A DNA stretch of 64,000 nt from an uncultured archaeon (lineage in GTDB: Archaea > Asgardarchaeota > Lokiarchaeia > Sigyniarchaeales > SOKP01). The stretch is taken from contig CAZALK010000010.1 of the NCBI GenBank assembly GCA_964486045.1, positions 64,001 through 128,000 of the forward strand, given 5' to 3'. Below, one piece after another: positions 1 to 19,052 of this stretch. A program made the translations under genes and the position numbers. Every line of letters begins with the position of its first letter. Position 1 is the first letter of the stretch. The notes below the pieces were generated by a model. That model was not told the DNA's origin, ran no database searches, and saw nothing but the letters and a program-made list of their open reading frames with translations.

Positions 1-168
1 TTATACTTATTTAAATGTAAAAATCAACATTTAAGAATTAGGTTCCTTAATTATAAAAATAAAAACCGAATTTATATTGTTTAAAGGTCCTAAAGAATTG
101 AGAAATATTTAAATAAAAAAGTTTAGAGGTAGTTTGTTTTGATCTGTTTTGTCCTTTTCTCTTTTTAC

Positions 169-510
169 CTAACCAATTTGAGTCTTATAATGTTCCACGC
201 AAAACCATGTCTTAGATTTTTTATGATAAGTCATATCTCTATTATGTTTACTACATATTGGGCACTTTACAATAGAGGCTCTTAGAGGACGTTCAATATC
301 CCACCATTTATCAGAAAAACGCTTTAGTATTTCAATTTTTTCCTCAGATGGGTGAATATATTTTCCATTTTTATCATGCTTTAAGTTATGTTCTTGGTCA
401 CTAATTTCCATCTGTCTTTCTGCGCATTCCTTCAAAATAATTAATCATAAATTGTTCCTAGCTCTCTGTAATTTTGGATCTTTGATCCGTATAGTTCTAC
501 CGTTTTTCAT
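169..510 (-). pseudogene. Small Zn-finger protein interrupted by an in-frame TGA (445..447)
   Basis: ATG at 510 gives MKNGRTIRIKDPKLQRARNNL*LIILKECAERQ..., in frame with track ORF 169..435; C-terminal CPIC...WFCxxH motif. Confidence 0.4.
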
Positions 511-688
511 TTATATTCATGTTTATTTTAGTGTGTCTCAAATTTAAATCTTTGTAGAGCGACAGATTTCTAATACCTTAAATACTAAAAATTTGCCTTA
601 AATAGTAAATATCGGCAATGCTGAATACTCTACCTAATTTATATCCTCTATAATCTGATAGTTCTGCTAATGAATTAAGCAGATCACC

Positions 689-838
689 GTGCATTATACA
701 GAAGACGCCCCTCCTATTGAAACAACAGATACTATCATCCCTAATGATTCAATCTTCGGTTATTCAACTATAGTAATTGTTATTATACTGTTCTTCAGTA
801 TTTCAATTAGATTATTCAAAGACAGAAAAAAAATATAA
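689..838 (+). pseudogene. Orphan C-terminal fragment of a membrane-anchored surface protein (Loki-CTERM/PGF-CTERM-like tail)
   Basis: Reads VHYTEDAPPIETTDTIIPNDSIFGYSTIVIVIILFFSISIRLFKDRKKI*: P/T linker, IxGY, TM helix, basic tail; frame closed upstream by TGA at 671. Confidence 0.4.
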
Positions 839-954
839 AATTAATATCATCGTTTTTTTATTTTGATCTTGAGTAATAAAAATTTTTCTAAATGGCATTT
901 TACTAATCTTTCACTCCTATTTTTCTTTTATAAAGATTCATATTTTTATGGTGT

Positions 955-1209
955 ATGGTAGAATCGATTCATCTAAAAGAAATGGAAGACCTTGGTCTTA
1001 GCACTACGATAGAAGGATATTATGTTGAAGAAGATCAAAAATCAGTATCTATTAGGTTACCAAATAGTATGTCTTTTTGGGTACCTAAACGGTTTATTGA
1101 TACTCAATTTTTTAGGGAGACTGATCTCAAGCAAGAGTTCCTTATTGACAATTGGATACTGCGAAAGATCGGACTTAGGTTAGATAAGATCAAAAAAATA
1201 GATCGTTAA
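955..1209 (+). CDS. Hypothetical protein (small beta-rich domain)
   Basis: 84 aa ORF with ATG start and normal composition. Confidence 0.55.
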   Translation: MVESIHLKEMEDLGLSTTIEGYYVEEDQKSVSIRLPNSMSFWVPKRFIDTQFFRETDLKQEFLIDNWILRKIGLRLDKIKKIDR

Positions 1210-1441
1210 AATCTTTTTGGGCTTCTATATCTCGTATGAATTGCTGAAGTGGAGAATCATCCTCAATATAATGAAGAACATCTGAGTGTATCCAAGTAGT
1301 TAAAGGTTTGGCTTCTCTGTACTTTGCCTGTTCATCAGGGCTTAGTGTTAAGTACTCTGAATATTCCTTACACCATCGTATAACTTTATTACTTTTTGCG
1401 CGAAAGTAGTTTCTTTTCTTATGGAGGTTTTGGTAAAGCAA
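1190..1441 (-). CDS. Hypothetical protein, possibly a fragment
   Basis: 83 aa ORF, TTG start, overlaps neighbour by 20 bp. Confidence 0.3.
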   Translation of the reverse strand: MLYQNLHKKRNYFRAKSNKVIRWCKEYSEYLTLSPDEQAKYREAKPLTTWIHSDVLHYIEDDSPLQQFIRDIEAQKDFNDLFF

Positions 1442-1966
1442 ATTCAGCTGACATCAAAAGCACATCATAATTAAAATTTTCAAATTGCATTATTAGTTCA
1501 TTACCTAATGCACTTAGAATTAATATTCAATGGGAGAAGAAAGACGGGAACATCATTCTATATTAATTCCCCCATGTTCTTCCTTAATTTTGATATGAAA
1601 AGGGATTTTATCATTTTGTTTCTGTTCCACGCTTTGAAAAAAGAAATTTGGCATTAGTACAGGAAGGAAAAGAAAAAGGAAGTTAAGTTTTGTTCTTAAT
1701 AGATTCAATTTGAGATATTAAAGGCCACTGATTATAATTTAATTCTTTCTTATCGTATCTATTATTAAATTAGGAATTTATAAAGGGAAATCATTAATAA
1801 ATCCTCTGTCCCTTCACAAATATTGATGATTATTTCCTTCTTAAAGTCATGATAATACAAAACAAGACCAAAGGAAAAAGAACATTTACACCTGAACAAA
1901 AAGAGTAATATAAGACCAAGAAAGAAGCACAAAGTAGTGTTAAGAAATTTATACTTTATTTAATCG

Positions 1967-2926
1967 TTAAAAAAGATTTGAAATTAAATATGAAAACACC
2001 TCATCAATTCCTTCTCCTGTGAGTGCTGATGTTTCAAAAAAAGGGAAATCATATTCCTCTGCTAAATCTTGAGCTCTGGATCTAATTTCTTCCCGATCCA
2101 CTGCTATATCGATCTTATTTCCAACGAGAACAATTGGAATTGATTTATCTTTAATGAATTGATGAGTTTCTTTAATCCAATCAATTATATTATTAAAGGT
2201 CTCTATTCTAGAATAATCGAATAAAATTAGAACCGCATTTGAATAGTTATAATAATATTTTCTAACTTTAGCAAAGCTTTTTATTCCTCCTAGATCGAGG
2301 AGATATAATAATAGATTATAATTCTTTGAAATTTGTAATTTTTTTTCTATTATTGAAATTCCGATTGTAGGTTTGTAAGCTTCATTGTAAGTTCCCATAC
2401 AATACATTCGTACTAAAGCACTTTTCCCTGCTGATTCAGGTCCCACAACAACAATTTTATTTTGATTATTTTTAGTATACAGTGTCCTATTTTTAGGTTT
2501 AAATATTAATTGCATATTTTCGTTTAATTTTGGAATTTTTGATATAGACTCTTGATTATTTAGAATCAGTGATATTTTTTCTGCTGTTAAATAGGCATAT
2601 GGAATAATTTGATCAATATTTGAATAAGGATCTCCTATTAATACAAAAATTGCGGGAGTTACTTTTTTTAACTCCACAAAAAATAGTTGAAATTCATTGG
2701 TACTGAATGTTCCACATCCAAATGAAGTTTCAGCATATTGTCTAATTCTATTTATTGTTTGATCCAAAATTGACATAATAGCTCCTATCATTTCCTCATC
2801 AAATCCTCTGATTGACTGTTTAGCAATAATTAACCCATCTAAATCTAAAATAATGGTTGCTAATAATCCTTGTGTTTCATAAATTAAATCTGAAAGTATA
2901 TCTTCTAGTACTCCTAATTTTGACAT
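1967..2926 (-). CDS. Roadblock/LAMTOR domain fused to a Rab-like small GTPase
   Basis: N-terminal roadblock pattern (GLLATIILDLDGLIIA...EEMIGAIMS); G1 GPESAGKS, G2 YKPTIG, G3 DLGG, G4 NKID, G5 ETSAL; no C-terminal Cys. Confidence 0.9.
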   Translation of the reverse strand: MSKLGVLEDILSDLIYETQGLLATIILDLDGLIIAKQSIRGFDEEMIGAIMSILDQTINRIRQYAETSFGCGTFSTNEFQLFFVELKKVTPAIFVLIGDPYSNIDQIIPYAYLTAEKISLILNNQESISKIPKLNENMQLIFKPKNRTLYTKNNQNKIVVVGPESAGKSALVRMYCMGTYNEAYKPTIGISIIEKKLQISKNYNLLLYLLDLGGIKSFAKVRKYYYNYSNAVLILFDYSRIETFNNIIDWIKETHQFIKDKSIPIVLVGNKIDIAVDREEIRSRAQDLAEEYDFPFFETSALTGEGIDEVFSYLISNLF

Positions 2927-2932
2927 TAGTTT

Positions 2933-3598
2933 CTATAGATCCATATTATATTTGATGTTTAAAATTTTGAATAAATTCTTTAAAATATTCAGACTAGGAA
3001 TGAAGCACATTACACAATCTATTTTTATCTCTTTCAGTGCCAAGTTCGTTTTGATTAAAACCAAATAATCTGATATTTGAGAATATTTTGCAATAATTCT
3101 ATTTAGCATTGCATTTAATGTGTCAAGTGCTACTGTAGGAACATTAGGGACTAATTTAATTGACATTAAATCAGCTAAACCATTTGCATAATGCCCAGAT
3201 AATATGTTACCTATTTCAGTTATGATGCTTAACGAAAGCTCGTCAAGATCCTCACTAGTTCTTACGTTTTCAACAGAAAGATTAGAATCTTCATTCAGAT
3301 AATTAACTAAATTAAAGATTGATTCTTTTGTAAATATTTGAATAATTGATAAATCTGATGTAAGGTGGATTTCAGAATAGATCCCAAATACCTCAACTTT
3401 TGGGCTTTCAAATAATTCTTCTACCTTCCAGAAGGGAATAATATCAGCTGAAGTTAGTGAAACCTCTATTTCATAATTAAATAATTTTGAAAAAGCTGTA
3501 ATTGCATGCCCAGACCCGATGTTTCCAATTTCCTTTAACATGTCTAATTGTTCTGGAGTTAGGTGGAATTCTTCTGGTATCTTAAAATCGTTATTCAT
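2933..3598 (-). CDS. cheC: Chemotaxis phosphatase CheC
   Basis: Two D/S-x3-E-x2-N motifs (DMLKEIGN, SIITEIGN). Confidence 0.92.
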   Translation of the reverse strand: MNNDFKIPEEFHLTPEQLDMLKEIGNIGSGHAITAFSKLFNYEIEVSLTSADIIPFWKVEELFESPKVEVFGIYSEIHLTSDLSIIQIFTKESIFNLVNYLNEDSNLSVENVRTSEDLDELSLSIITEIGNILSGHYANGLADLMSIKLVPNVPTVALDTLNAMLNRIIAKYSQISDYLVLIKTNLALKEIKIDCVMCFIPSLNILKNLFKILNIKYNMDL

Positions 3599-3624
3599 TT
3601 TGTTTTTTCTCTTTTTTTTGATTT

Positions 3625-4173
3625 TTAATAAAATTTTTTAAAATCTGTTTCTCCAGTTGATTTTACATACAAGGAAAAATCGTTTGTGTCAAAAATCACG
3701 TTTCTCCCCTTTGAACCCCCAGTCTCTTCTTTGATAATTTGTATTTTTAATATATCTAATTCTTCCTTAACAGAAGCGATATTATTAAATCCCACATCAT
3801 TATTTTCTAAATCAAATATTTTTGAGCCTCCTATAATAAATGCCCTAATATTCTCTCTTACAGCACCATGATTTAGTAGTTCTTCCATTAATAATTTTAC
3901 AGAAAAGCTTGCGTATTTATGCGGATATTGGATTATTTTAGTTGGACTTGCTTTGGGTAATAAAATATGAGACATTGCGCTTAATTTGTTTATTTCGTCA
4001 AATAAAACCAGGGCAATGCACGAGCCCAATCCATAAATTGAAATAGTTGGTTTACGATTTGAAAGAAAGTTTTTGCTGTTAGAGAGTGCATAATGCCCAA
4101 TTAGTACAGATATATTTCCATTTCTATCCGTTTCCTTGATTTGATCAATTGGCTCTATAATACTCACCTTCAA
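3625..4173 (-). CDS. cheD: Chemoreceptor glutamine deamidase CheD
   Basis: GLGSCIAL...HILLP catalytic Cys/His; GGSKIF, ETGGSKGR motifs. Confidence 0.93.
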   Translation of the reverse strand: MKVSIIEPIDQIKETDRNGNISVLIGHYALSNSKNFLSNRKPTISIYGLGSCIALVLFDEINKLSAMSHILLPKASPTKIIQYPHKYASFSVKLLMEELLNHGAVRENIRAFIIGGSKIFDLENNDVGFNNIASVKEELDILKIQIIKEETGGSKGRNVIFDTNDFSLYVKSTGETDFKKFY

Positions 4174-4199
4174 TCATGGGTTTAAGTATTGAATATTTA

Positions 4200-5318
4200 T
4201 TATATAAATTTTGTTGCAAATTTAATCATATAATCATGAACTTTATATACTGGAAGTATTAGATTTGCTGCACCTAGCTTTGCTGCTGCTCTTGGCATCC
4301 CATAAATAACACATGTCTCCTCAGATTCAGCGATAGTTTTGCCACCATTATTTTTAATTGCTTTTAATCCCCTTGCACCATCATCTCCCAACCCTGTTAA
4401 TAGAATTCCCATTACATTATTTTTGTATATTTCTGCAGCTGAAAAAAATAAAACATCCACAGAAGGTTTGCAAAAATTGACTGGTTTATCATCAGATATT
4501 CGAATGTGAGGTCTATTTTTTATAGTTATAATCTTCGTGTGTTTTCCACCAGGACTCAAGTAAACATTACCGGGTAATATTCTCTCCCCATCGTCTGGGA
4601 TTTTTACGTTTATTTCACAAACTTGATCCAGAGATTTACTAAGTTGTTTCATAAAAAATGCATCAAGATGTTGAACGATCAAGATTGGGCTTGGAAAATC
4701 CTGAGGAATCTCTTTTAAAATAAATTTTAAAGTTCTTGGTCCACCGGTGCTGGTGCCTATTACTATTAAATTTGCTTCTAATATAAGTTGAGGAGCTTTT
4801 GGAAGATGTAACGGTTTGGGTTTTATTGGTGTTCTTATTTTTCTCTTTACTTCTAATTCATTAATAGATTGTTTGCTAATTGATTTTCTTATTAGATTAT
4901 TTCGTTTTTCATAACTTTTTTTTATTTTTGCTGCGTATAAAACACTTGAAACTAATTTTTCTTGAACCTTTGGGAATTCAGTTTTCCATAGACCTTTGGG
5001 TTTTATTATAAAATCTAATGCTCCTAAAAGTAACGCTTGAACAGAATTATCTAAGTTTTCTGGATTAAAAACTGAAAAAATTATAGTTGGTATTGGATAA
5101 TGTTCTGAAAGAAATTTTAATACTGTTAACCCGTCAACCTCAGGCATTATTAAATCTAATATTAATACATCAGGATTCAACTCTTCAATTTTTTCAATTG
5201 CCTCCCTCCCGTTTCGAGCAGTATCAACAGCAGAAATTTCATTGTGTGAAATTAGCATTTCAGAGATTAATTTTCTTTGATATGCTGAATCTTCTGCAAG
5301 TAATACTCTAACAGACAT
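4200..5318 (-). CDS. cheB: Chemotaxis response regulator / methylesterase CheB
   Basis: N-terminal REC (LDLIMP); methylesterase GTSTGG, VQHL, GLGDDG, KPSVD, YGMP. Confidence 0.96.
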   Translation of the reverse strand: MSVRVLLAEDSAYQRKLISEMLISHNEISAVDTARNGREAIEKIEELNPDVLILDLIMPEVDGLTVLKFLSEHYPIPTIIFSVFNPENLDNSVQALLLGALDFIIKPKGLWKTEFPKVQEKLVSSVLYAAKIKKSYEKRNNLIRKSISKQSINELEVKRKIRTPIKPKPLHLPKAPQLILEANLIVIGTSTGGPRTLKFILKEIPQDFPSPILIVQHLDAFFMKQLSKSLDQVCEINVKIPDDGERILPGNVYLSPGGKHTKIITIKNRPHIRISDDKPVNFCKPSVDVLFFSAAEIYKNNVMGILLTGLGDDGARGLKAIKNNGGKTIAESEETCVIYGMPRAAAKLGAANLILPVYKVHDYMIKFATKFI

Positions 5319-5326
5319 GATAATGT

Positions 5327-6358
5327 TTAATTGACCTTCATATATATTCGATTTAATGAGTCTACTAACTTTAAATTACTCTGGGAGCTAAAAATTGTTT
5401 CTGTTTTACCTATGATTAATAAGCCCCCTGCATTTAAACGATTTTCAATGATTTTTAAGAACTTATTTCTTGCAACTCTATTAATGTATATTAGGAGATA
5501 TCGACAAAAAATGATATCATAAACCTGTGATGTTTGATGGCCTTTCATTACATCTTCCCCAATAAACTTGATATACTTTTTTATTTTTTCATTTATAGTG
5601 TATGTAAATCCGAATCCCACTTTTTTCTTCAAAAAGTAATTTTTTTCAAAATACTTTGAAACATTTTTTGTTGATTCTTCGTTATACACTCCGATATTTG
5701 CTCTTTTAATAGCGTTTTCATCAATATCAGAAGCTATAATTCTGAATTTAGGAAATTGTGGAATTTGTTTTTTAAAATTATCTAAAATTATTGCAATAGA
5801 ATATGGTTCTTCACCGTTTGCACATGGACAAGACCAAATATTAATAGTCTCCTTAAATCTTTGGAAATTCTTCAGCTTTTTATATAAAATACTTTTTGGA
5901 ACGATTTTCTTTGCTGATAATTTATTTTTTAACCTGTGTTCTAAGTCCTTCTTTCTATTGGAAATCTTTTCAATTTTATTTGGTTTCTTTTCACTTTTTT
6001 TACGATATTTTCTTTCTGGATTGGGATGTAAATTACTAATTACATCTTCTCTTTTGTAATTTCCACTTTTTAATATAATGTCTTCCAATTGGTCATAAAC
6101 TTCCCAATTTCTAAAAAAAGTAGAATAATTGATATTAAAACTAATTAAAAATTTATTTATTTCTTTAGGATTTTCTACTAAATATTTGTAATACGATTCA
6201 AAGTTAGAACAATTAACACGAATCATTCGAGATTTAATTCTTTTCTCGATATGTTTTCTTTGATAATATCCTAGTTTTAACCCAGTTGTTTTATTCAAAA
6301 ATCGAATTAATAAATCATAAAAATCCTCATCAAATTTAATATCCTCAATTAGTATCAC
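5327..6358 (-). CDS. cheR: Chemotaxis methyltransferase CheR with a lysine-rich insertion
   Basis: INYSTFFRN, IWSCPCANGEEPYS, IIASDID, DIIFCRYLLIY, GGLLIIGKTE. Confidence 0.93.
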   Translation of the reverse strand: MILIEDIKFDEDFYDLLIRFLNKTTGLKLGYYQRKHIEKRIKSRMIRVNCSNFESYYKYLVENPKEINKFLISFNINYSTFFRNWEVYDQLEDIILKSGNYKREDVISNLHPNPERKYRKKSEKKPNKIEKISNRKKDLEHRLKNKLSAKKIVPKSILYKKLKNFQRFKETINIWSCPCANGEEPYSIAIILDNFKKQIPQFPKFRIIASDIDENAIKRANIGVYNEESTKNVSKYFEKNYFLKKKVGFGFTYTINEKIKKYIKFIGEDVMKGHQTSQVYDIIFCRYLLIYINRVARNKFLKIIENRLNAGGLLIIGKTETIFSSQSNLKLVDSLNRIYMKVN

Positions 6359-6368
6359 TTGTGAACAC

Positions 6369-6923
6369 TTATTTTTCTATTAATTTTTCAATTTCGGTAA
6401 ATCGTTCACTGATACGTTCAAATGAATACTTAATATGCATTTGGATTTCTTTAACTTCGGCAAAAAGCTTTCTTATATGAGATCTATCGGACTTTGATAA
6501 AACAAACTGATTTTTTGAATATATTTTATGAATTGGCTCATGTATAGATGGAGAAGAGACAAATGGCTCTAAAACCTCATCCCTACTAAATTCTTGTCTA
6601 GATTGCCCAGGAAAACTTAGATCAGAAACATCCTCTTTAATTTCTTTAAGTATACTAACGAATTCAGCAGGTTCAATGCCTTGTTTTATAACTTCATATT
6701 TGAAATTATAAAATTTCTTCTTAGTTTTAAGTTTTCCAGCCCAATTCGCTGCCATGTACCTATGAAACAACCGGGAGTGACTACCTGCCCAGATCCAAAT
6801 TAGTTTTAGTCCTTTATCTACAATTAAATAAACTTCAGAGGGATTGAACAACTTCTCTGGTCTGAGCTTGATTGTTTCACCGTCGACCTTATAAACATAA
6901 TCGTAATAGCTACTTTCTGTCAT
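6369..6923 (-). CDS. Single gelsolin-domain protein with a C-terminal helical/coiled-coil extension
   Basis: FNPSEVYLIVD-x5-IWIWAGSHS and VIKQGIEPAEF match the gelsolin-repeat pattern. Confidence 0.75.
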   Translation of the reverse strand: MTESSYYDYVYKVDGETIKLRPEKLFNPSEVYLIVDKGLKLIWIWAGSHSRLFHRYMAANWAGKLKTKKKFYNFKYEVIKQGIEPAEFVSILKEIKEDVSDLSFPGQSRQEFSRDEVLEPFVSSPSIHEPIHKIYSKNQFVLSKSDRSHIRKLFAEVKEIQMHIKYSFERISERFTEIEKLIEK

Positions 6924-7034
6924 TCTTTTGGGTTTTTAACGTATTGAGAAGAGTTTATTTTAATTTAGATTTCCTAGTAATTTGTACAAAATATAAAAAA
7001 AAATATTAGTTTGATTTATCGTTATTCAAATTTT

Positions 7035-9035
7035 CTACGAATAGAACCTTAATAGAGCATCTAATAATTCCTGGAGTGTTTCTAAGTTTGGAATAAATAA
7101 GAAAGTTCCTGTAATTTTAAAATCTGTTACAATCACGCTCGTATCTATAACTAGTGATAATTTCTTCAATAGCCCAATTTCTTCTTTTAGAATCCTAAAT
7201 AACTGTTGTCCAGTGTCTACAGACATGTCAGGAGGTTCTGTCATCAATTTTAAGCCAAGTAAATTACCAATTGCACTTACATAATGACTTCCAAGAATAT
7301 GTCCTAGTTCAGAGAGTGCACTTTTATAGAGGTCAGGAAAATCAGAAGCCTTGTTAATTTTCTTTCTTAAATCTATCTGCCTTTTACTAGTATCATCAAC
7401 TATTATTGAAGTAATGTCAACTGCATCTTTCAAATTAAATATTGTTAACACTGTAGCTCTTGCTCTTCCAACAACATTACTCCATGCAACTAAGAGTTTT
7501 TCATCTTTTCTGCTAATTGAATTTGCATAATCATCTAATTCCACCATCTGAACGGAAGGAATGTTGATATCAACTCTCTTGTTAATCATCTGAGCTAAGG
7601 CATTTGCAGCATTCCCTGCGCCTATATTACCAACTTCTTGAAGGGCATCTCTTTGAACTTCCGAGAGTTCAATTTTTGATAACTCCAGAAGTTCAGGAGC
7701 TTTTTTAGTTTTTGCTGGTGTTTCTGAAATTTCATGTCTAATTTCAAGTTTTTTAAAGATAATTGAGAGAGTTTCAATATCTGGAATAAAGAAGAACATA
7801 CCTTTTAGTTTTAAGTCAGATACTTTTATAGATGTCTGAATGATAATGAAAAAATCTGCAATCGCTTCAAATTCTTTTGAAAGAAATTCCCCTATTTCCC
7901 CAGCAGTACTCATAGTAAATTCAGGGACGTCAATCATTAGCTTTGTGCCAAGCAGATCAGCTAAGGCTGAAGCATAATGACCTGCCATAATGTTTCCCAT
8001 TTCTGTTATCGTGGATATAGCATAATCATCAAGATCCTTTTTAGTTTTAACCTTATTAGGTACAATCTTTGAATCTGGACCTGCTAAATCTGATATTAGA
8101 TGCATTAGGGGCTTCATTTCAAAGATATTCAGTATAGTTGCTGGAGAGGGCTTTTCTATATGACAAAAAATTCCACATACTTTATCATTTTTACCACCGA
8201 ATTGGCTTGGGAGTTCATCTAATGGAATTATGCCTACATCAGTGAGAGTTACGTCAATCTTCTTTTTTACTAATCTAGATAAAGCAGTGACTGCATTTCC
8301 TGTCCCAATATTCCCTAATTCTTTCAAAGTGTCTTGTTGTTCTGCTGATAAAACTACTAGCTTTTCTTTTTTAACTTTTTTAACTTTTTTGGTGGTTGTT
8401 GCTTTTGGTAGTTTTTGTTTCTTTTTTGGTGCTTGAACAATTTGTGGAATTACAAGCGTAGAATCAATATCTGGTCTATCAATTATCTTCGGTTGCACTT
8501 TAGGACGTTCTAGGCTTGTTGGCTTTATATCGATTTTTTTCTCAATTTTTCGACCCATTGATTTGATATATGGCTGAATTAAAGCATCTAAATCTAATAA
8601 TATCAAAGATTCATCCTCGAATACTCCGGTTAATTTTATTAGTTTAAAATCTATATTAGTCTTAACAATAGTTCCTTGTTTTTTGAAGATTGCAAGGGGT
8701 ATATCTCTAACACCGATTACTACATCTACTAACACTGCTATTTTAAGATTTCTGTATTCTAGCAATAAAATCCTTGAAAACTCATCGATGCCATAATCTA
8801 TATCATTCCCATATATATTATGTCTTAATGATATGATTGAGTAGATCTCCCCTCTTATACTGATAATGCCCACGATTGATTTATCTGTTAATGGTACAGA
8901 AACAATATCATCTCCGGGTACATAAATTTCCTTAATGTTTGAAACTTCGAGAAGATATTTTTCATCAAGCACTTGTATTATTACCACATTTATGTTTTCT
9001 CCAAATTCTATTTCTTCAGATTTACTTTTAAACAT
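7035..9035 (-). CDS. CheW-CheC-CheC fusion protein
   Basis: N-terminal CheW (VGIISIRGEIYSIISL, IAVLVDVVIGV), K/P-rich linker, two CheC domains (DTLKELGN, STITEMGN; DALQEVGN, SALSELGH). Confidence 0.9.
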   Translation of the reverse strand: MFKSKSEEIEFGENINVVIIQVLDEKYLLEVSNIKEIYVPGDDIVSVPLTDKSIVGIISIRGEIYSIISLRHNIYGNDIDYGIDEFSRILLLEYRNLKIAVLVDVVIGVRDIPLAIFKKQGTIVKTNIDFKLIKLTGVFEDESLILLDLDALIQPYIKSMGRKIEKKIDIKPTSLERPKVQPKIIDRPDIDSTLVIPQIVQAPKKKQKLPKATTTKKVKKVKKEKLVVLSAEQQDTLKELGNIGTGNAVTALSRLVKKKIDVTLTDVGIIPLDELPSQFGGKNDKVCGIFCHIEKPSPATILNIFEMKPLMHLISDLAGPDSKIVPNKVKTKKDLDDYAISTITEMGNIMAGHYASALADLLGTKLMIDVPEFTMSTAGEIGEFLSKEFEAIADFFIIIQTSIKVSDLKLKGMFFFIPDIETLSIIFKKLEIRHEISETPAKTKKAPELLELSKIELSEVQRDALQEVGNIGAGNAANALAQMINKRVDINIPSVQMVELDDYANSISRKDEKLLVAWSNVVGRARATVLTIFNLKDAVDITSIIVDDTSKRQIDLRKKINKASDFPDLYKSALSELGHILGSHYVSAIGNLLGLKLMTEPPDMSVDTGQQLFRILKEEIGLLKKLSLVIDTSVIVTDFKITGTFLFIPNLETLQELLDALLRFYS

Positions 9036-9079
9036 TTTAGTTACCTATTATTTTTTGATTAAATATATAAAAAAAAAAT

Positions 9080-9940
9080 TTATTTTATCATAATTCCTTT
9101 CCAGATTAATTCTACTTCAGGATCATCCTCATTCACTTCAGTGTAAAAGTCCAATTGCTTAAAAATCGAAATTTGGCCACCACTTGTGTGTTTATAAACG
9201 TAATTTAGTAAGTCATCAATACTAATGAAATTAAATCCTGCTACTTTTAATTCTGAATCATTCACAATTAACAAGTCTTCTCGTTTGAAAAAACGATTTT
9301 CTTCAATAAATTCTACCATCAATGTAGGATCTACCTCTTTACTAATTACCTTAATTGGTGTGTCAAACGGTATATTTCGAAACGACTTACTGGTTGCAAA
9401 AATAACCTTATCTGGAAGTAGATTTTCTTGCTTAGCATAATTGGTAATTTCAGTTAATACTTTCTTGTAATTACTTAATTCTAAGATATCGTGACAAGAA
9501 ACCAACAACACTTTATTTTCACTAGTTTCAATGATAAAATCAAGAAACCGATCTGAACTAGAATTTATATTAATTTTTATTGACTCTACCTTCAAATCTT
9601 CCGTATATTTAAGATTTTGATAGAATCTCCACTTTACTGCTTTTTTATCATTTTCTTCCCTGCTGATAAAAACTTGAAAAAGTTTTTTCAATTGTTCAAG
9701 GTTTAATTTCGATAAATCTGCTATTTTATCAACATCAGTACCTATTGGAACATAATCCTTACTAGTAGTTGTCTTTGACTTTGATTTTGTGTTTTTAGTT
9801 TTTTTGGTTTTTTTAGATTCAACATCATCCAAATAAATTTGTAATTCGCTTTTTGTGAATTTTGGGAGAATTTGTTCAATAAGGTATAATAAATATTCTT
9901 TCGATTTATCATCCATTGTTTCATAAAACTGTAAATTCAT
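9080..9940 (-). CDS. Hypothetical protein in the che cluster
   Basis: 286 aa, GGAGG ribosome-binding motif upstream, co-oriented within the cluster. Confidence 0.8.
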   Translation of the reverse strand: MNLQFYETMDDKSKEYLLYLIEQILPKFTKSELQIYLDDVESKKTKKTKNTKSKSKTTTSKDYVPIGTDVDKIADLSKLNLEQLKKLFQVFISREENDKKAVKWRFYQNLKYTEDLKVESIKININSSSDRFLDFIIETSENKVLLVSCHDILELSNYKKVLTEITNYAKQENLLPDKVIFATSKSFRNIPFDTPIKVISKEVDPTLMVEFIEENRFFKREDLLIVNDSELKVAGFNFISIDDLLNYVYKHTSGGQISIFKQLDFYTEVNEDDPEVELIWKGIMIK

Positions 9941-9966
9941 TTTTTTTCCTCCTTTTTTTATTTTTG

Positions 9967-11982
9967 TTACCCAACGAAAAATGATTCCAATTCTGATTGC
10001 TTAACATCGCTACTACTTCCTATATTTTTTAAATAGTACATAACCTCTCTTTCTTGAAACGGTAATAAAGTATCAAATGTGAAAGAAATTTTCTGTTCTC
10101 TATTATTTTTTGATTTGCTAACTTTATAATCTAAGTTTGAAGATATAAGCTCAAAAGAATCTGGAAAAGTATCTGTAACATTGACATCACTTAATTTTAT
10201 ATTAGACCCATTTTTGGCTACAATGTAAATAGCAAATTCATTGCTACTTCTCCCTGGGAAGATCTCTTTTCCTACCATCAATTTACGCCGCTTGTGAGAT
10301 ATTTTAATAGCAGATTGATCCATCTTTGAGAGATCATCCATTATAATGAAAAATTCATTCTTATCTCCTGATCCTACATATTTTGGATAGTATGAGTGTA
10401 CTTGTAATGGAAAATTATACGCTTTTTTATAATCTGGTGTAATAGCCTTAAGAGGGTATTTTATTTCCAAGAAATCTTCTACTTCAATCACAGAATCTAA
10501 ACGATAATTCTTTAGATTGATACTTAACTCAAGAGTATGTTCATGTGAAGGATCATTATCATCAGGACTAACTTTTATTTCAAGATCGTCAACTTCTAAT
10601 GCGCCAGATGATCTATATAATTTATACTCGGAAATATCCCTAGGGGGTAAAAAGTCTTCTGGAATTGTTTCTAAAACCAGAAGTCCCTTAATTGGAATCG
10701 TTCCTTCATTGTTAATAATTATCCTAGAATTTATTTTCGTTTCTTGAAATGATTTGATTTCTCCTTCTGCTAATTTTTTCTTAATTAAAACGCGAGTTAA
10801 CTTAAATGTAGTCTCATCGTATTTTGAAATTAGCGTTGAATTACTCTCAGTTTTGTAATCTACGGAATATTCAACTTTTCTAGTAAAATTGGGTTCTTTC
10901 TCATCAATGATATCAAAATATTCTGATGTAAATTTCCCCCGAGGGAGTACAACTTTCTCATTAGCTTCACTAAAATCATATCCTAGTATTTTCTTCGATT
11001 TTGTTTTATCATAGATTAATATCGACTTCAATTTCATCTTGAAATCACTATGGTTTTCAAATATAAGTGAACACTGCCAATGATTAGGAGCATAATTTTT
11101 CTCAGATTTCTTGATTGCATGCATAGCATGAGAGTATCCTGAGAATTTATTTATTTTTACTCCAGATATGACTTTTTCTGATAGGTTAAAAGTTAATTCA
11201 TATTTACCAGTTTTTATGTTTTCTTTCTTTTTGGGAAATATTTTAGCGATAAACACTATTTCTACTTTTTCCATAGAGTTTAAGTTATTTATGGAGCATT
11301 CAATTGAATTTTGAGATATCTTAAAATCGCTATTTGAGTTACTTTTAAATTCCAAGTCATAAAAACCCTGAGAAAAATCTTTCTTTAGTTTAATTTTCTC
11401 TAGAGATGAATCTGATATATTTTCGATTGAAATCGAAAATTTTATGACATTCTCCCTTCCTATCATTAATAGATAATTATTAGCTTTACCATTGCTAGTA
11501 AGATATTCACTATCAACCGAAGAACTGCTTTTAAGATCTTCAACTTTATTTTCAATATTTTCCTGTAATTTTACCAAATCTGGTATTTCCTCCGAGTTGA
11601 CAATTTCATATTTTAAAACTTTATTTGAACTCGGTTCAAAAATCCCTAAACTGATGTTGTTTTCATCACTTTGATTATTAAATTGAGATCCAGAGAATTG
11701 TAAGTTTGCATCCCATATCCGATCCTTAATTGAATTATTGAATATTGAAATATTTCCATTACCGAGTGCTGATTTTCTACTTCCATTATTATCATAGTCA
11801 AATTCTAAAAATTCCTCATTTAATATTAAAATATCTGAAAACGCACCTGTGTAGCTTGATTCAATTTTCTTCTCTCGATATGTTTTTTCGACAAGTTTTC
11901 CTCCTTCTCTTATAGGGATACCAAGAAAATTTGGGCTCATTTTCGTTTTTAATTCTTCATAATCAACTTTTTTAAATCCCAT
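9967..11982 (-). CDS. Large cytoplasmic multi-beta-sandwich protein (DUF11/Ig-like repeats; N-terminus resembles an adaptin mu-homology domain)
   Basis: Repeated N-x-(G/S)-x3-L/I-x2-V-x-V-x-D/E-x-(I/F)-P-x2-F strands; no signal peptide or TM; GGAGG upstream. Confidence 0.6.
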   Translation of the reverse strand: MGFKKVDYEELKTKMSPNFLGIPIREGGKLVEKTYREKKIESSYTGAFSDILILNEEFLEFDYDNNGSRKSALGNGNISIFNNSIKDRIWDANLQFSGSQFNNQSDENNISLGIFEPSSNKVLKYEIVNSEEIPDLVKLQENIENKVEDLKSSSSVDSEYLTSNGKANNYLLMIGRENVIKFSISIENISDSSLEKIKLKKDFSQGFYDLEFKSNSNSDFKISQNSIECSINNLNSMEKVEIVFIAKIFPKKKENIKTGKYELTFNLSEKVISGVKINKFSGYSHAMHAIKKSEKNYAPNHWQCSLIFENHSDFKMKLKSILIYDKTKSKKILGYDFSEANEKVVLPRGKFTSEYFDIIDEKEPNFTRKVEYSVDYKTESNSTLISKYDETTFKLTRVLIKKKLAEGEIKSFQETKINSRIIINNEGTIPIKGLLVLETIPEDFLPPRDISEYKLYRSSGALEVDDLEIKVSPDDNDPSHEHTLELSINLKNYRLDSVIEVEDFLEIKYPLKAITPDYKKAYNFPLQVHSYYPKYVGSGDKNEFFIIMDDLSKMDQSAIKISHKRRKLMVGKEIFPGRSSNEFAIYIVAKNGSNIKLSDVNVTDTFPDSFELISSNLDYKVSKSKNNREQKISFTFDTLLPFQEREVMYYLKNIGSSSDVKQSELESFFVG

Positions 11983-12035
11983 TTTATTTTTCCTCCAATA
12001 TATTTCTTAATAAATTATTTTCTTTAAAAAAAATT

Positions 12036-14114
12036 TTAATTAGTTATTTGAGATACTATATTTTTATTGAACTTCGAAGAAATTATACTTAGCACATCAA
12101 TTATTAGACAAATAGCCCCTTCACCTGTTATTGTAGAACCTAAAATATCACGAGAATCTGAGTAATTAGATTTAAATGGTTTTACAACAATGTCAAGCTG
12201 CTGTAGTTGTTTGTCAGCTATAAATACTGCCGAGTTTGTTTCATCTCTTTGGCACCAAACAGCTATTTTTTTATGAGCGTTTGTTGTACTTTTCTTTACC
12301 ATCTCTAAATGCTCCTCTAAATAAATTATTGGTATTTTTTTACTACCAATTCTGTAATATTGTTCTCCATCTTCATGTTCAACCTGATTTGGGTTGAAGA
12401 AGTATATTTGTTTTATGTTTTCAGTTGGAATAGCGAATAAGTCATTAGAAATTTGCATTAGTTGTGCTCTTAGAATTGCTCGTGTAAATGGAACAATTAG
12501 TGTAAATCTTGTTCCAATATTTTTTTCAGAGTAAATTGTAAAATCTCCACCAAGTTCTCCTATTTTCTCAGCCACTATAGCCATTCCCATACCTCTTCCG
12601 GAAAGGATATCGGCCTCAGAGAGTGTTGAAAATCCAGGCATTAAAATGAATTTATGAAGCTCTTCATTATCTATCTCTTTTACCTCGTTCTCATCGTAGT
12701 AACCTTTCTCTACAACTTTCTTTCTAATTTTATCGTAATTAATCCCAGCACCATCATCTTGTACTTCAATATAAATTGAGCCTGCTCGTCTATATGTATT
12801 GATTCTCAAAGTGGCAACGTCATTTTTACCCATTTTCCGCCTTTCCTTCGGTAACTCTATTCCATGATAAATAGCATTCCTTATAAGCTGAACTAAAGGA
12901 GAATTTAGGTCTTCTAAAATTTTCCTGTCAATTTCGACATTTGTTCCTTCTAAAATCAACTTAAGTTTTTTACCAGTTTCATTTGCTAAATCGCGAACTA
13001 ATCTCTTATATTTTCTAAATGTTGACTCAACTCTGACTAATTTTAATCTGAATAGAATTTCTTGAATATCGAGAAATGGTTTATCCATTTTATCAAATAA
13101 TCGAGAGATAGTTCTATCTTGTTTTTCCTTTAAAAGTTGAGAGATATGATTCTTCATTACTATTAGTTCTCCAAAATAATTCATAAGCTCTTCTAAGTAT
13201 TCAACATTAACTTTTACACTAGAAATTCTAATAGTTTCTCCCGAAAAATCATCTACTATTTTAGAAACCCTTTCAACCTCTTCATCAAAAGTCTCTTCTT
13301 CCATATCAGTTTCATATCTTGATTCTATACTTACATCCTCAGGTTTCTCCCTTTCCCATTGTTCTTTAAGTTCGATAATTATTTTTTCAAACTCTTCAGG
13401 TTTCATTGGTTTTATGACTTTGCTTTCAATCTCTAGGATCTCAGCGATCGTGTGAGATATTTCGGTTTTATTCTTTGTAGTTATGAAGTATATTTCAAAC
13501 TCATTCTTCAAAGTTGCTTTTTCTAAATCTTCAGGAGCAGGATGAGTCCAGCATATTTTGCCATTTTCATTTAGTGCTCGAAATATTATAAATAACCTAA
13601 CTTTTTTGAAGACACATGTTTCTTCAAGCCTAATATAAATTTTAAATGGTTTGTTCTGCTTTTTTTGTAGAATTTTAGAGATTTCTTCTTGTGATAACGC
13701 TTGGATAAATGTTATATCGTAATCACTTTCAAAACTTTCAAAGCTATCTTTGATATCTTCCACAAATTTTGCGTCTAAGTCAGTTAAATCTCCAGTTTTT
13801 ACTCTTTTTATTACCATTCTTAACACATCAAGTGATTCAAAGAGCATATCAACGAAATCACTTTTCTTATTAAGACTGGCTTTTTTTTCTTTTGCATTTT
13901 CTAAAAAGGATTCAAAATGATGGCAAAATTTTGATAAGTTATCAAACCCTGCCATTGCAGTTAATCCTTTTAACGTGTGAAAAGTAAAAAAGAGTCCTTG
14001 AACTGGTTTTAGATCATCTGGATTTTCCTCTATATTTAGAATTTCATCTTCTGTTTTCTGAATCAGATCCTCTGCTTCACTAACAAATAGTTTCATATCG
14101 TCTTTGGATGACAC
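12036..14114 (-). CDS. cheA: Chemotaxis histidine kinase CheA
   Basis: Hpt FHTLKG, P2 domain, LIRNAIYHGIE, DDGAGI, PGFST...SGRGMGM, C-terminal CheW-like P5. Confidence 0.97.
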   Translation of the reverse strand: MSSKDDMKLFVSEAEDLIQKTEDEILNIEENPDDLKPVQGLFFTFHTLKGLTAMAGFDNLSKFCHHFESFLENAKEKKASLNKKSDFVDMLFESLDVLRMVIKRVKTGDLTDLDAKFVEDIKDSFESFESDYDITFIQALSQEEISKILQKKQNKPFKIYIRLEETCVFKKVRLFIIFRALNENGKICWTHPAPEDLEKATLKNEFEIYFITTKNKTEISHTIAEILEIESKVIKPMKPEEFEKIIIELKEQWEREKPEDVSIESRYETDMEEETFDEEVERVSKIVDDFSGETIRISSVKVNVEYLEELMNYFGELIVMKNHISQLLKEKQDRTISRLFDKMDKPFLDIQEILFRLKLVRVESTFRKYKRLVRDLANETGKKLKLILEGTNVEIDRKILEDLNSPLVQLIRNAIYHGIELPKERRKMGKNDVATLRINTYRRAGSIYIEVQDDGAGINYDKIRKKVVEKGYYDENEVKEIDNEELHKFILMPGFSTLSEADILSGRGMGMAIVAEKIGELGGDFTIYSEKNIGTRFTLIVPFTRAILRAQLMQISNDLFAIPTENIKQIYFFNPNQVEHEDGEQYYRIGSKKIPIIYLEEHLEMVKKSTTNAHKKIAVWCQRDETNSAVFIADKQLQQLDIVVKPFKSNYSDSRDILGSTITGEGAICLIIDVLSIISSKFNKNIVSQITN

Positions 14115-14138
14115 ATAATCACCTTATTTTTTATGTAT

Positions 14139-14537
14139 TTAGGCTTTTTTATACTTTAGTATACGATCCATAACCTCTAAGATTTGTTCAGTTTTGAATG
14201 GTTTTTGGATAAAATCTTTTGCCCCTTTTTTAGCAGCTTCTAGAACTAGAGCTTCCTGTCCTAGTGCTGATACTACAACGATTAATGCCTTTGAGTTTAT
14301 TTTTAGAATCTCCTCTGTAGCTTCAATTCCACCCTTTTCTGGCATTACTAAGTCCATAGTGACCAAATCTGGGCTTAATTTTTTATATAGGGAGATTGCT
14401 TCTACTCCGTTGGAGGCTTCACCGATTACTTCAATTTGTTCGATCTTGCTAATGATGTTTTTTAGCATATTTCGGGTAAATTGCGCGTCATCGACGATAA
14501 GTACCCTTTTCTTCCCATTCTTTTCATTCTTTGACAT
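14139..14537 (-). CDS. cheY: Chemotaxis response regulator CheY
   Basis: VDD, TMDLVMP, VSALGQ, DFIQKPF; adjacent to cheA. Confidence 0.95.
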   Translation of the reverse strand: MSKNEKNGKKRVLIVDDAQFTRNMLKNIISKIEQIEVIGEASNGVEAISLYKKLSPDLVTMDLVMPEKGGIEATEEILKINSKALIVVVSALGQEALVLEAAKKGAKDFIQKPFKTEQILEVMDRILKYKKA

Positions 14538-14566
14538 TTTATTTTATTCAACTCCTATTTTTTGTT

Positions 14567-15088
14567 TTATGTTAATGATGATAAATCTTGTTGAATCCTA
14601 AATTTTTCTACCTCGCTAAAAATCTTAGATAAGTCAAGCACCACCCTTGGTCTATCCTCAAAATTAATTATACCTTTGATAAATTCAATAGCAACACTTG
14701 TTTGAAAAATAGGACTCAACCCAATAATCTCCTCAGGAAGGATGTGATCAATACTGACTATTTGATCCACATAAAAACCTATGAGATCATTTTCTACTTT
14801 TAAAATTATTATAAACTTCTTTGTCTCACTTGAATCTTGTTCAAAAGAGGACCGCTTCTCATGGTATAAGAGGTATTTATCTAAGTCTAATTTTCTTCTT
14901 AAGTTAATTACATGAATAATATCTCCCCTGTAATTGTATATACCATCTATATAGTCGATGCTTTTCGGTAATTTCCTGATTTGTCCTGCCTGAATTATTT
15001 CCTTAACATCCAGGAGGTCAATAACAAATTCTTCCCACCCTATTTTAAAAGTAAGGATGGAAATTTGATCTATTTCTTTTTGAGCCAT
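14567..15088 (-). CDS. cheW: Chemotaxis coupling protein CheW
   Basis: VKEII...LPKS...GIYNYRGDIIHVINLR, GFYVDQI. Confidence 0.93.
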   Translation of the reverse strand: MAQKEIDQISILTFKIGWEEFVIDLLDVKEIIQAGQIRKLPKSIDYIDGIYNYRGDIIHVINLRRKLDLDKYLLYHEKRSSFEQDSSETKKFIIILKVENDLIGFYVDQIVSIDHILPEEIIGLSPIFQTSVAIEFIKGIINFEDRPRVVLDLSKIFSEVEKFRIQQDLSSLT

Positions 15089-15108
15089 TTTTTATATACC
15101 TACCGTTT

Positions 15109-15921
15109 TTATATTATAAAATATTGGTTAATGTTTTTTTCAAATTCGTTAAAGGGAGTTACATCCCCATTAAAATTTTTTAAATAGTCTTTATATTGAT
15201 ATAAAAATTCATCTGCAATGAGGTACATATACCTTTGAAGCAGTGAATTCATATTGTCTACCAAAAATGCAAAAATTACATTACTTTTTGATATAACATA
15301 GAATTGTTGATTCCCAAAATTAATTTCCTTGAGCTTAGCACCAGTTTCCTCTCCTATAATTGTATTGGAAAAGGATAAAAGAGCTGAAATAAATCCACCA
15401 ATGTGAACCTCGTGGTCAGCAATATTGCTACGAGCCTTATTTATTTTTGAAATAAAAGGACTTCCCGCAGAACCAATTACGAAAATAGCAATAATTCCCT
15501 CACTTCGAGGGATTTGAACCGTATTCTCAAATACTTCTATTATCTCTGTGATTGAAGCATTCGAAACTACTTTTTGATTTATTTTTTTTGATAAGAGGTA
15601 TAGACTTCCAAAACTTACAGACTGGTCCTTTTCCTCCATATAAATAATAACTGAAATATCATCCTCACTATTTTTAAAATATTGGATGAAAATTGTAAAA
15701 TCATCTAAAGGAATGATTGAATTTCCCTGCTTTTTGTTAATTATCTCTTTTTTATATAATTCAATAATATTCTGGATAAGCGGGACACCTATTCCTTTTT
15801 GAAATCCAATGTCAAATTTAGCACTAGAGCTAATGTCTGAAATCATTAAAATGCCATAACCTAGCATCTGTAATTTTTCTGAGCCATTGTTACTATTTTG
15901 AGCATTGTTCATAGCTATCAT
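15109..15921 (-). CDS. Longin-domain protein (possibly two longin-like domains); first gene of the che cluster
   Basis: C-terminal IFVIGSAGSP...GGFISALLSFS...LKEINFG...EFLYQY...FNGDVTPF, the Asgard longin pattern. Confidence 0.7.
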   Translation of the reverse strand: MIAMNNAQNSNNGSEKLQMLGYGILMISDISSSAKFDIGFQKGIGVPLIQNIIELYKKEIINKKQGNSIIPLDDFTIFIQYFKNSEDDISVIIYMEEKDQSVSFGSLYLLSKKINQKVVSNASITEIIEVFENTVQIPRSEGIIAIFVIGSAGSPFISKINKARSNIADHEVHIGGFISALLSFSNTIIGEETGAKLKEINFGNQQFYVISKSNVIFAFLVDNMNSLLQRYMYLIADEFLYQYKDYLKNFNGDVTPFNEFEKNINQYFII

Positions 15922-16375
15922 ATTTCTTACATGCTTTTTTTTTACAAAATCTAATTTTATGTTTAATGACTATGAGTTTTTTTACCTTTTTTCAATACCC
16001 ATAAAACTTTTGGTAAAAAATCATTAAGATCTTTAAGTTTTATTGTATTTTTATATATTTGAACTAAAAATCTTATATTAGAAAATATATATAAAGTTTT
16101 TGTTATAAAAAGATGTTATTCTAATGGAAGTAACAATTGTTTTTTATCATTTTAATGTTGTTCTTATTTTATTTTGATCATCGATCTTCTAGAATTTCAC
16201 TTTTTCTAGATGCATCAACGATTTTGTACTAAAAGAGCCTTCTACCCATTTATATTTGCTAATCCTCCCTTACTTATAACAAAAGTTTAAATTTCTAAAA
16301 AAAATTACATATTAAAGGTATACAAATTTATAATAAAGCACACAAAAATAAATTTGAACACATACATTTAAGACC

Positions 16376-17062
16376 ATTACAAGAAGTGAATCAGATATAA
16401 CAACAAATAATGTAAATATAGCAAAAGAAAAGTTTTTCCAAGAAATCCAAATCGTATGCCCCAAATGTAAAAGTAATAAGGAGCTGAAAATACCTGTCAA
16501 GGTAATAAATCAAAGTAAACAACTTACAACAATCTCAATACCGTCAGGATTATGTTGTGAGCATAGTTTTCAATCGTTTGTTGATAAGAATTTTATTGTT
16601 AGGGGCTATCAAAATGTAGACTTTGAGTTTTCTCATATGGAATTATATGAAAGTAGTGATTCATCTTTAGAGGATAAAGATGATCACGGAGATAAAGCAT
16701 TGGATATTTCTTCCTTACCTATTTTTCAAGGAATACTCCAAATATTAAGAGATTGTGTAGATGATAAAGAGATATTGGGGAGTGGGATATTTAGTATTGA
16801 AGGGAAAGTTTTATACTCATCTCTCCCACAAACTACGCTATTTAATACTATCCGAGAATTTGAAGTGAGGAGTGAAAGGAACTTGGTGAGTGTAAAACAA
16901 ATGTATCTTGAATTAGAGAATAATGAAAAATTTATTTCTAAATTTATGCAAATTAATGGGAGGAAATTCAATTTGGTCTTAATGTTTTCTTTTAGGGTGA
17001 AGTTTGGCATGGGGAATTTGCATTTAAGGGATTTATTGAAGAAAATCGCGAAACTAAATTAA
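16376..17062 (+). CDS. Zn-ribbon plus roadblock-like domain protein; true start lies upstream of track ORF 16637, probably non-AUG
   Basis: Frame open from 16358 and encodes CPKC...GLCCEHSFQSFVDKNFIVRGYQ before M16637; no ATG/GTG/TTG in that stretch, first ATT at 16376; C-terminal ILGSGIFSIEGKVLYSSLP is roadblock-like. Confidence 0.65.
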   Translation: MTRSESDITTNNVNIAKEKFFQEIQIVCPKCKSNKELKIPVKVINQSKQLTTISIPSGLCCEHSFQSFVDKNFIVRGYQNVDFEFSHMELYESSDSSLEDKDDHGDKALDISSLPIFQGILQILRDCVDDKEILGSGIFSIEGKVLYSSLPQTTLFNTIREFEVRSERNLVSVKQMYLELENNEKFISKFMQINGRKFNLVLMFSFRVKFGMGNLHLRDLLKKIAKLN

Positions 17063-18963: not shown

Positions 18964-19052
18964 TTTCTCGAAACAAAATATTTCTTTATGAAAGAGTTCT
19001 ATGAAATTTATTATGCAAATTTTTATTAGGAATAAAGCGTAGTGAGATAATT

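Follow-up and report, generated by a model that had tools for sequence, protein, structure and literature searches.

A 64,000-nucleotide stretch of DNA (the window) from the genome of an uncultured archaeon of the class Lokiarchaeia (GCA_964486045.1; contig CAZALK010000010.1, positions 64,001 to 128,000; G000:C10:64001-128000 in our numbering) carries an operon in which a full set of chemosensory (che) genes is interleaved with genes for a gelsolin-domain protein, a roadblock-Ras GTPase, a tandem-longin protein and two orphan proteins encoded directly after cheA (P0005 and P0003). Judged from sequence and gene order, this operon is a strong candidate for a link by which chemical sensing could act on the actin cytoskeleton. 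A functional connection to the Che pathway is very probable for the gelsolin and the two orphans and also, in most lineages, for the GTPase. We further propose, with a probability of roughly one half, that the Che signal would pass through P0005 and P0003, acting as adaptors, to the dedicated gelsolin and the roadblock-GTPase, and would thereby bias Lokiactin protrusion.

Two cultured Asgard archaea were described in 2026 as crawling by Lokiactin-dependent protrusions; the paper names no sensory input and leaves chemotaxis unmentioned (PMC13716822). Gelsolins from Asgard archaea have been shown to regulate actin in vitro (PMC7444086). The presence of che genes in Lokiarchaeia is already published, che genes and chemoreceptor arrays having been described in Candidatus Lokiarchaeum ossiferum in 2022-23, with the output not known (PMC9834061). 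Roadblock-GTPase architectures are also already published, for Loki MK-D1, and Asgard small GTPases are hard to match to regulators because they seldom lie in operons (PMC10933270). Our literature search, which covered few subscription-only papers, found no paper on an interleaving of che genes with those for gelsolin, longin and GTPase.

The window belongs to a 5.18-Mb genome in 45 contigs (~30% GC, 99% complete, 7.8% contamination). Thirteen consecutive open reading frames (ORFs), all on the minus strand, occupy positions 15921-1967 in the ORF list of the window, in the order longin, cheW, cheY, cheA, P0005, P0003, cheW-cheC-cheC, gelsolin, cheR, cheB, cheD, cheC and roadblock-GTPase. From the longin gene to the GTPase gene they are separated by 20, 29, 24, 53, 26, 44, 111, 10, 8, 26, 26 and 6 bp, the widest gap (60-195 bp in relatives) lying directly before the gelsolin gene. 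A 14th co-oriented gene, a second cheB coding for 443 amino acids with a receiver and a CheB_methylest domain (cheB2, C10:62612-63943), is found just outside the window start. The initial annotation had spoken of twelve co-oriented genes with gaps of 6-111 bp; the gaps and the orientation are as it described, but the count is not, since its own list held 13 genes and the 14th lies beyond the window.

The che genes were all upheld by Pfam. CheW (14567..15088) matched the CheW model with 90.6 bits, and CheY (14139..14537) matched Response_reg with 92 bits and has the DD, D, S and K residues of the phospho-acceptor site, as read from the sequence. CheA (12036..14114) has the P1-P2-P3-P4-P5 architecture (Hpt, P2, H-kinase_dim, HATPase_c and CheW in Pfam), and its top NCBIfam model was CheA_Halo, with 348 bits, under the cut-off of that model. 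The HxxKG histidine box of CheA and the receiver residues of CheB are likewise present in the sequence. Further down the operon are a 666-amino-acid fusion of CheW with two CheC modules (7035..9035; Pfam CheW and four CheC half-sites, 137 bits; NCBIfam CheC, 219 bits), CheR (5327..6358; CheR, 146 bits, with CheR_N), CheB with receiver and methylesterase domains (4200..5318; CheB_methylest, 201 bits, with Response_reg), CheD (3625..4173; 79 bits) and CheC (2933..3598; 70 bits). Ten signalling domains of methyl-accepting chemotaxis proteins (MCPs; MCPsignal matches) are encoded elsewhere in the genome. As there is one H-kinase_dim match genome-wide, this CheA is the only one of the genome, and because it is single the MCPs have no other CheA pathway. 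The F1-type gene set is complete (CheA P1-P5, CheW, CheY, CheB, CheR, CheC, CheD and MCPs), and we assign the predicted system to the F1-like, CheC/CheD-type chemosensory pathways, a class set here by gene content and not by CheA phylogeny.

Some relatives depart from this set. In three loci (L005, L007 and L018) cheR is cut to remnants of 55-73 amino acids and in three others (L011, L012 and L015) it is absent, with cheB, cheD and cheC kept; such remnants and losses in operons of the same genus suggest repeated decay of receptor methylation. Separately, ORFs of ~560 amino acids that match CheA in P1-P2 only, at 38-40% identity, occur in four genomes (L042, G153:C290; L043, G029:C39; G041:C44; G043:C145) and form a second, truncated CheA-like gene family.

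To follow the arrangement through the class we searched 161 class genomes with the CheA sequence, of which 53 encode a CheA; 47 of the 53, spread over ten genera, have an orthologue at ≥49% identity. About 40 neighbourhoods were then scanned with the 13 operon proteins. The series longin-cheW-cheY-cheA-DUF11-286aa-cheW/C/C-gelsolin (DUF11 and 286aa denoting P0005 and P0003), co-oriented and tightly spaced, recurred in about 25 loci from nine genera and three families. Loci outside this order are cut by contig ends, except for those of three genomes, G006 (lacking the longin and gelsolin genes), G041 (longin on another contig) and G067. The roadblock-GTPase gene follows cheR-cheB-cheD-cheC, or stands directly after the gelsolin gene in three genomes of genus g13 that have none of those four genes in the block (L028-L030). 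In G067, a single contig, the block is in two parts, and the gelsolin and GTPase genes are still embedded among che genes. In G029, G041 and G153 (L055-L057) an A/V-type ATP-synthase operon and a Usp gene stand between the gelsolin gene and the GTPase-cheB2 pair, and the pair persists. The che block occupies a conserved chromosomal site beside aEF-2, PurN and FttA. In G070 the flanks of this site are collinear (aEF-2 and PurN on one side, longin and a Zn-ribbon gene on the other) and everything from cheW to cheB2 is gone; no gelsolin, P0003 or che-type GTPase orthologue was found anywhere in that genome, and both orphans are gone.

The operon is vertically inherited as one block. The trees of CheA, gelsolin, P0003 and longin were largely congruent (normalised Robinson-Foulds distance 0.39-0.57, against 0.99 with shuffled labels), which is consistent with co-inheritance and could also be given by shared species history alone. 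Relatives are not independent, so that our phyletic counts overstate the statistics; their direction was consistent. The initial annotation had tied the eukaryote-like genes to the che genes, and this linkage proved stable in relatives, with synteny kept in nine genera. Co-occurrence and co-loss with che held for the gelsolin and P0003 and largely for the GTPase, but not for the longin, which survives the loss of che in G070.

These data also bear on whether the eukaryote-like genes are simply passengers, trapped in a che block beside aEF-2, inherited by linkage and transcribed from promoters of their own. The constancy of the site beside aEF-2, PurN and FttA would fit such an origin, as would the wide gap in front of the gelsolin gene and the persistence of the longin without che. 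However, across three families whose proteins are 38-80% identical, the genes have kept their order, orientation and close spacing, their ORFs are intact and many of their residues invariant; the genes remain with che through a split and an insertion; and the gelsolin and P0003 were never found without che. We consider passengers very improbable.

Pfam at threshold was silent or weak for the longin, gelsolin and roadblock calls, and each was examined separately. All three were borne out, by an AlphaFold2 model with Foldseek, by profile searches of the PDB and by Robl_LC7 matches of orthologues, respectively.

The gelsolin-domain protein (P0002; 6369..6923) has 184 amino acids, with a single gelsolin domain at about residues 10-98. 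In phmmer searches of the PDB it matched only gelsolin-family chains (villin, ProGel 7c2f and 2DGel, E from 5e-6 to 5e-5), and a profile of 20 orthologues gave eight matches, all of the gelsolin family, with the Asgard ProGel 7c2f at the top (E 2.7e-7). Its score against Pfam Gelsolin was 16.4 bits, under the cut-off of 21. Past the domain, a tail of ~85 residues contains an invariant PG(E/Q)SR motif and a conserved amphipathic C-terminal helix. P0002 belongs to the gelsolin/cofilin domain family, and we predict that it regulates actin; the genome encodes at least seven gelsolin-domain genes and two high-scoring homologues of actin, and its Lokiactin gene lies at C1:345097-346209. Of the 47 genomes with the CheA orthologue, 41 have a strong orthologue of P0002; the remaining 114 class genomes have none. 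Contig ends or cut contigs account for five of the six misses, and in the sixth genome, G006, the cluster is of a variant form lacking the gene.

The last gene within the window (P0004; 1967..2926) encodes 319 amino acids, of which residues 157-317 match Pfam Ras with 123 bits. The N-terminal roadblock domain of this genome's own protein scored 19.5 bits against Robl_LC7, under the cut-off of 23; the N-termini of orthologues matched Robl_LC7 (PF03259) in 15 of 15 cases, with a best E of 1.8e-6, and three also matched MAPKK1_Int/LAMTOR3. The G motifs GxxxxGK[ST], DxxG, NKxD and ETSA and the switch-I Thr are invariant in 18 orthologues. In their alignment, the residue after the DLGG of G3 is I, L, A, K or F, so that the catalytic Gln is absent. 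The protein ends in ...NLF, with no Cys for prenylation. In every locus that bears it, the gene lies next to cheC, gelsolin or cheB2, and the orthogroup is found in about 32 of the 47 genomes with the CheA orthologue and in one of the other 114.

Directly after cheA comes P0005 (9967..11982), a 671-amino-acid cytoplasmic protein that the initial annotation had called a beta-sandwich protein and that indeed carries DUF11-type beta-sandwich repeats (Pfam DUF11, 35 bits; NCBIfam DUF11-type repeat). Sequence prediction gave neither a transmembrane segment nor a signal peptide. P0005 always stands after cheA, also in distant Loki-type che clusters, and its length in relatives is 663-1220 amino acids. 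P0003 (9080..9940), of 286 amino acids, has no Pfam match. Its AlphaFold2 model (predicted local distance difference test, pLDDT, 86) gave best matches consistently to Card1/Can2 and restriction-endonuclease folds, at a borderline Foldseek E of 4e-3 (VIA Z 8.2, root-mean-square deviation 3.6 over 121 residues). D134 is invariant, and no Lys of a (D/E)xK motif was seen among the listed conserved columns, in a reading of the alignment made with no structural superposition. The core of the P0003 model may accordingly be nuclease-like, with a PD-(D/E)xK-type fold, a borderline assignment. P0003 is present in single copy in 46 of 400 Asgard genomes, all of them che-bearing, and in none of the 239 genomes outside the class; the family comprises only 68 clusters among 1.84 billion representatives. 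A protein language-model atlas returned only family-internal or weak leads.

A distant relative of P0003 lies on a metagenome contig (L065, 596-15739) in the order MCP-CheW-CheY-CheB-CheA(split)-CheD-DUF11-[324 aa]-CheW/CheC-CheR-[568 aa orphan]. Because the trio of DUF11 protein, orphan and CheW/CheC is present in this distant cluster, it is older than the eukaryote-like additions.

The first gene of the operon (P0001; 15109..15921) encodes 270 amino acids without a Pfam or NCBIfam match. An AlphaFold2 model built from 25 orthologues (pLDDT 82; predicted template modelling score, pTM, 0.80) has two beta-beta-alpha-beta-beta-beta-alpha-alpha domains, at residues 21-134 and 143-267. In Foldseek it matched Fuzzy-Inturned, Mon1-Ccz1 and BLOC-3 (E from 1e-5 to 1e-3), followed by AP2 sigma/mu, LAMTOR and roadblock proteins. 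The probabilities of the longin/roadblock matches were 0.96-1.00, and the whole-chain TM-scores were low, at 0.26-0.31. On this model P0001 is predicted to consist of two longin-fold domains. Its orthologue heads the operon in about 25 loci.

A paralogue of P0001 in the same genome (L044; G000:C5:185-3209) is preceded by a HisKA-receiver gene and followed by an orphan of ~117 amino acids and a protein of ~161 amino acids with a C-terminal Zn-ribbon. These two proteins are kept partners of the longin paralogue in other genomes as well, and the idea that the longin paralogues are GTPase partners was rejected, their kept neighbours being the two proteins just named. Complex prediction for the roadblock-GTPase with the tandem-longin protein scored 0.19, below the mark for a verdict either way.

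Longin and roadblock platforms, together with Rab/Rag-like GTPases, act in eukaryotes as switches of membrane identity, and the top structural matches of P0001 are subunits of Rab guanine nucleotide exchange factors (RabGEFs). Both points are in line with a Che output other than motility, for instance membrane or vesicle remodelling, cell-cell contact or deployment of surface proteins through the roadblock-GTPase and the longin, with the gelsolin secondary. Such a system would be akin to the bacterial Che systems of "alternative cellular function". The occurrence of roadblock-GTPases in Loki MK-D1 (PMC10933270) also fits, as do the decay and loss of cheR in several lineages, which would suit a pathway with no need for gradient adaptation, and the fact that our Pfam genome scans detected no motility organelle. 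Yet it is the gelsolin gene, from a family of actin regulators, that is coupled to che most tightly, and not the GTPase gene, which some lineages have lost; and the rich adaptation set (cheR, two cheB, cheD and three CheC modules), typical of gradient sensing, is intact in most loci. On balance, an output unrelated to movement seems unlikely to us.

Where, then, could the signal go? The models PF04283, PF01917, PF04659 and PF00482 (CheF, archaellin, ArlD/E and the PilC/ArlJ T2SSF family, respectively) found no match in this 99%-complete genome, and they did match in control genomes. The initial annotation had seen no cheF, arl or pilus gene in the window; this absence thus extends to the whole genome for the four families named, and no combination of cheF with an archaellum was found in the genome. 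The genome does, however, include a generic filament-like locus on another contig. In the class as a whole, CheF occurs in one of 161 genomes, and archaellin exceeds the cut-off in G016 alone.

This candidate minimal locus, which resembles those of type IV filaments, lies on contig 1 (L001, G000:C1:632000-651999, at 5689-12001). It encodes a T2SSE-type ATPase of 719 amino acids, a pilin-like protein of 140 amino acids and a 507-amino-acid protein with six transmembrane segments, with an A24-like peptidase gene nearby, and it adjoins rpl3/rpl4 and cdc6, far from che. Whether or not che is present, its platform-like gene is widespread, occurring in 109 of the 161 class genomes; the che-bearing genomes G067 (single contig), G072, G029 and G053 gave no match to it. 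Lacking co-variation with che, the locus was rejected as the che output. The same data speak to the wider possibility that Che steers a conventional appendage missed by the models, be it this filament or a divergent archaellum, with the eukaryote-like genes accessory. That a filament-like locus exists at all counts in its favour, and so do the bacterial Che systems known to control type IV pili and a 2026 survey in which Aap-like pili and scattered components of the archaellum are reported for many Asgard genomes (PMC13705601). However, neither the distribution nor the position of the filament locus follows che, the genome has no match to the CheF, ArlCDE or PilC/ArlJ families, and the exact tracking of the operon by its gelsolin paralogue would be left unexplained. 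We regard a conventional appendage as quite unlikely.

In the coupling to Lokiactin that we propose, the receptors, with their ten MCP domains, would feed CheW and CheA, and CheR, the two CheB proteins, CheD and the three CheC modules would serve adaptation and termination of the signal. The output would be encoded within the operon itself, instead of by CheF and an archaellum; we infer, in other words, that this chemosensory system carries its own output module, of a non-canonical kind. P0005 and P0003 would most likely be adaptors or scaffolds that receive phosphorylated CheY (CheY-P) in place of the euryarchaeal CheF. The signal could then pass to the dedicated gelsolin paralogue, leading to local severing, capping or nucleation of Lokiactin, and also to the roadblock-Ras GTPase, which would hold or reset a polarity or a membrane site. 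Because its catalytic Gln is absent, the GTPase is expected to hydrolyse slowly and to depend on a partner. The tandem-longin protein may regulate the GTPase or provide a platform for it, and is the least securely attached part of the scheme. The net effect would be biased growth or retraction of protrusions, and hence movement, in chemical gradients.

Several observations weigh against this proposal. The GTPase orthologue is absent from the che-bearing genomes G085, G062 and G069, and probably from most of genus g5; because it is missing there, it cannot be an obligatory output. Paralogues of the longin occur in 139 of the 161 class genomes, those that we fetched are distant from che genes and GTPases, with several adjoining Zn-ribbon genes, and in G070 the che-linked longin is itself kept, at 79% identity, after the che block has gone. 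Of the gelsolin-domain matches in the genome, at least eight in number, P0002 diverges most, and the binding of actin by so divergent a gelsolin is a prediction. In distant Loki-type che clusters the trio is kept and no gelsolin, longin or GTPase was detected; because these clusters keep the trio alone, the core pathway works without the eukaryote-like genes. Divergent motility genes could escape Pfam models, and the filament-like locus is present. On its single contig (G016:C1, 6,035,313 bp; L037-L039), G016, which may be Candidatus L. ossiferum, has three CheA loci only 27-29% identical to the CheA of our operon and six archaellin-family matches, with no CheF match, and it has neither this operon type nor the embedded partners. 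Because G016 does without this type of operon, the published crawling cannot depend on it. Finally, the contact of CheY-P with non-Che proteins is something that we infer, and co-transcription is deduced only from the spacing of the genes.

The initial annotation had suggested a Che relay whose output is a GTPase switch and an actin regulator. Synteny, co-occurrence and the absence of CheF and archaellin favour this idea, and its weaker side is the linkage of the GTPase and the longin, which is incomplete. A broader claim, that an Asgard Che pathway is wired to a eukaryote-type cytoskeletal toolkit and represents a prokaryotic forerunner of chemotactic cell migration that predates eukaryotes, is tentative, and we hold it to be rather doubtful.

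The surroundings of the operon can be described briefly. Divergent from the longin gene lies a Zn-ribbon gene (16358..17062, plus strand) without a family assignment. The part containing CPKC...CCEH is in frame, with no ATG, GTG or TTG before 16637, the only canonical start. In genera g1, g5 and g13, homologues of 200-230 amino acids are encoded next to longin in divergent orientation, and the two genes stay paired in genomes without the che block (G070, G056 and G105). The possibility that the Zn-ribbon protein is a roadblock protein found no support: hhalign gave a probability of 0.2 against both the GTPase N-terminus and the longin family, and a profile search of the PDB returned MglB at non-significant scores only (E 0.36). 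Past the divergent promoter region, at 18313-20456 on the plus strand, are two tandem genes for DUF998 membrane proteins and an isochorismatase-family gene, apparently unrelated to the operon. At the other end, the spacer between the roadblock-GTPase gene and cheB2 (window 1-1966) measures 2 kb, against ~75 bp in relatives. It contains a dispersed repeat of ~280 bp (about 1490-1930) that resembles a miniature inverted-repeat transposable element, with at least ten copies at 75-91% identity on other contigs.

The operon offers a concrete candidate link between Asgard chemosensing and actin-dependent crawling, with five proteins named, a dedicated gelsolin among them. If the link is real, environmental steering of the actin cytoskeleton would have arisen in archaea from prokaryotic signalling parts, and one small GTPase among the many orphans of Asgard archaea would gain a partner pathway. 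If it is not, the operon would still stand out as an unusual form of Che system, to which two new che-specific protein families belong.

Among known systems, the che sets and arrays of Candidatus L. ossiferum (PMC9834061) come from the same class and likewise combine che genes with MCPs. If G016 is taken, tentatively, to represent that organism, its system differs in having three CheA proteins only 27-29% identical to ours, archaellin genes and no embedded partners. The Asgard mini-gelsolins ProGel, 1DGelX and 2DGel (Akil et al. 2020, PMC7444086) share with P0002 a single domain of the gelsolin/cofilin type, and the layout of P0002, a domain with a C-terminal extension, recalls 1DGelX; P0002 is, however, far more divergent (16 bits against Pfam Gelsolin), carries the PG(E/Q)SR tail and is found only in che operons. 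With the tri-longin RabGEFs (Mon1-Ccz1, Fuzzy-Inturned and BLOC-3), Ragulator and the MglB platforms, P0001 has successive longin folds in common, and its operon also encodes a small GTPase. In contrast to the tri-longin RabGEFs, it has two domains and not three, no sequence similarity to them was found, and its paralogues adjoin Zn-ribbon genes and not GTPases.

The Frz-MglA/MglB system of Myxococcus xanthus resembles the operon by analogy only. There, too, a Che-type pathway is tied genetically to a Ras-superfamily GTPase and a roadblock protein, and the analogy extends to a cell that moves without a rotary organelle. The initial annotation had drawn this parallel, which is upheld as far as the combination of a roadblock with a Ras/Rab-like GTPase, and not for an MglA-type G domain. 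In our operon, roadblock and G domain form one polypeptide, the G domain matches Ras/Rab best rather than MglA, G3 lacks the Gln, and switch I reads YKPTIG without a conserved Arg, whereas MglA has an intrinsic switch-I Arg finger and works with a separate MglB homodimer. Unlike in Frz, CheA is not a CheA-CheY fusion, and the gene for the GTPase is part of the operon, and some lineages do without it.

In the euryarchaeal F1 system, the CheF adaptor connects the Che proteins to the ArlCDE switch of the archaellum. Our operon shares with that system, as known from Halobacterium and Haloferax, a Che set with CheC and CheD, the P2 domain of CheA, a haloarchaeal CheA as the best NCBIfam model and MCPs encoded elsewhere. 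It differs in that CheF, archaellin and ArlD/E have no match, CheW is fused to two CheC modules, and five non-Che genes, those for the DUF11 protein, the 286-amino-acid protein, the gelsolin, the roadblock-GTPase and the di-longin protein, are built into the operon.

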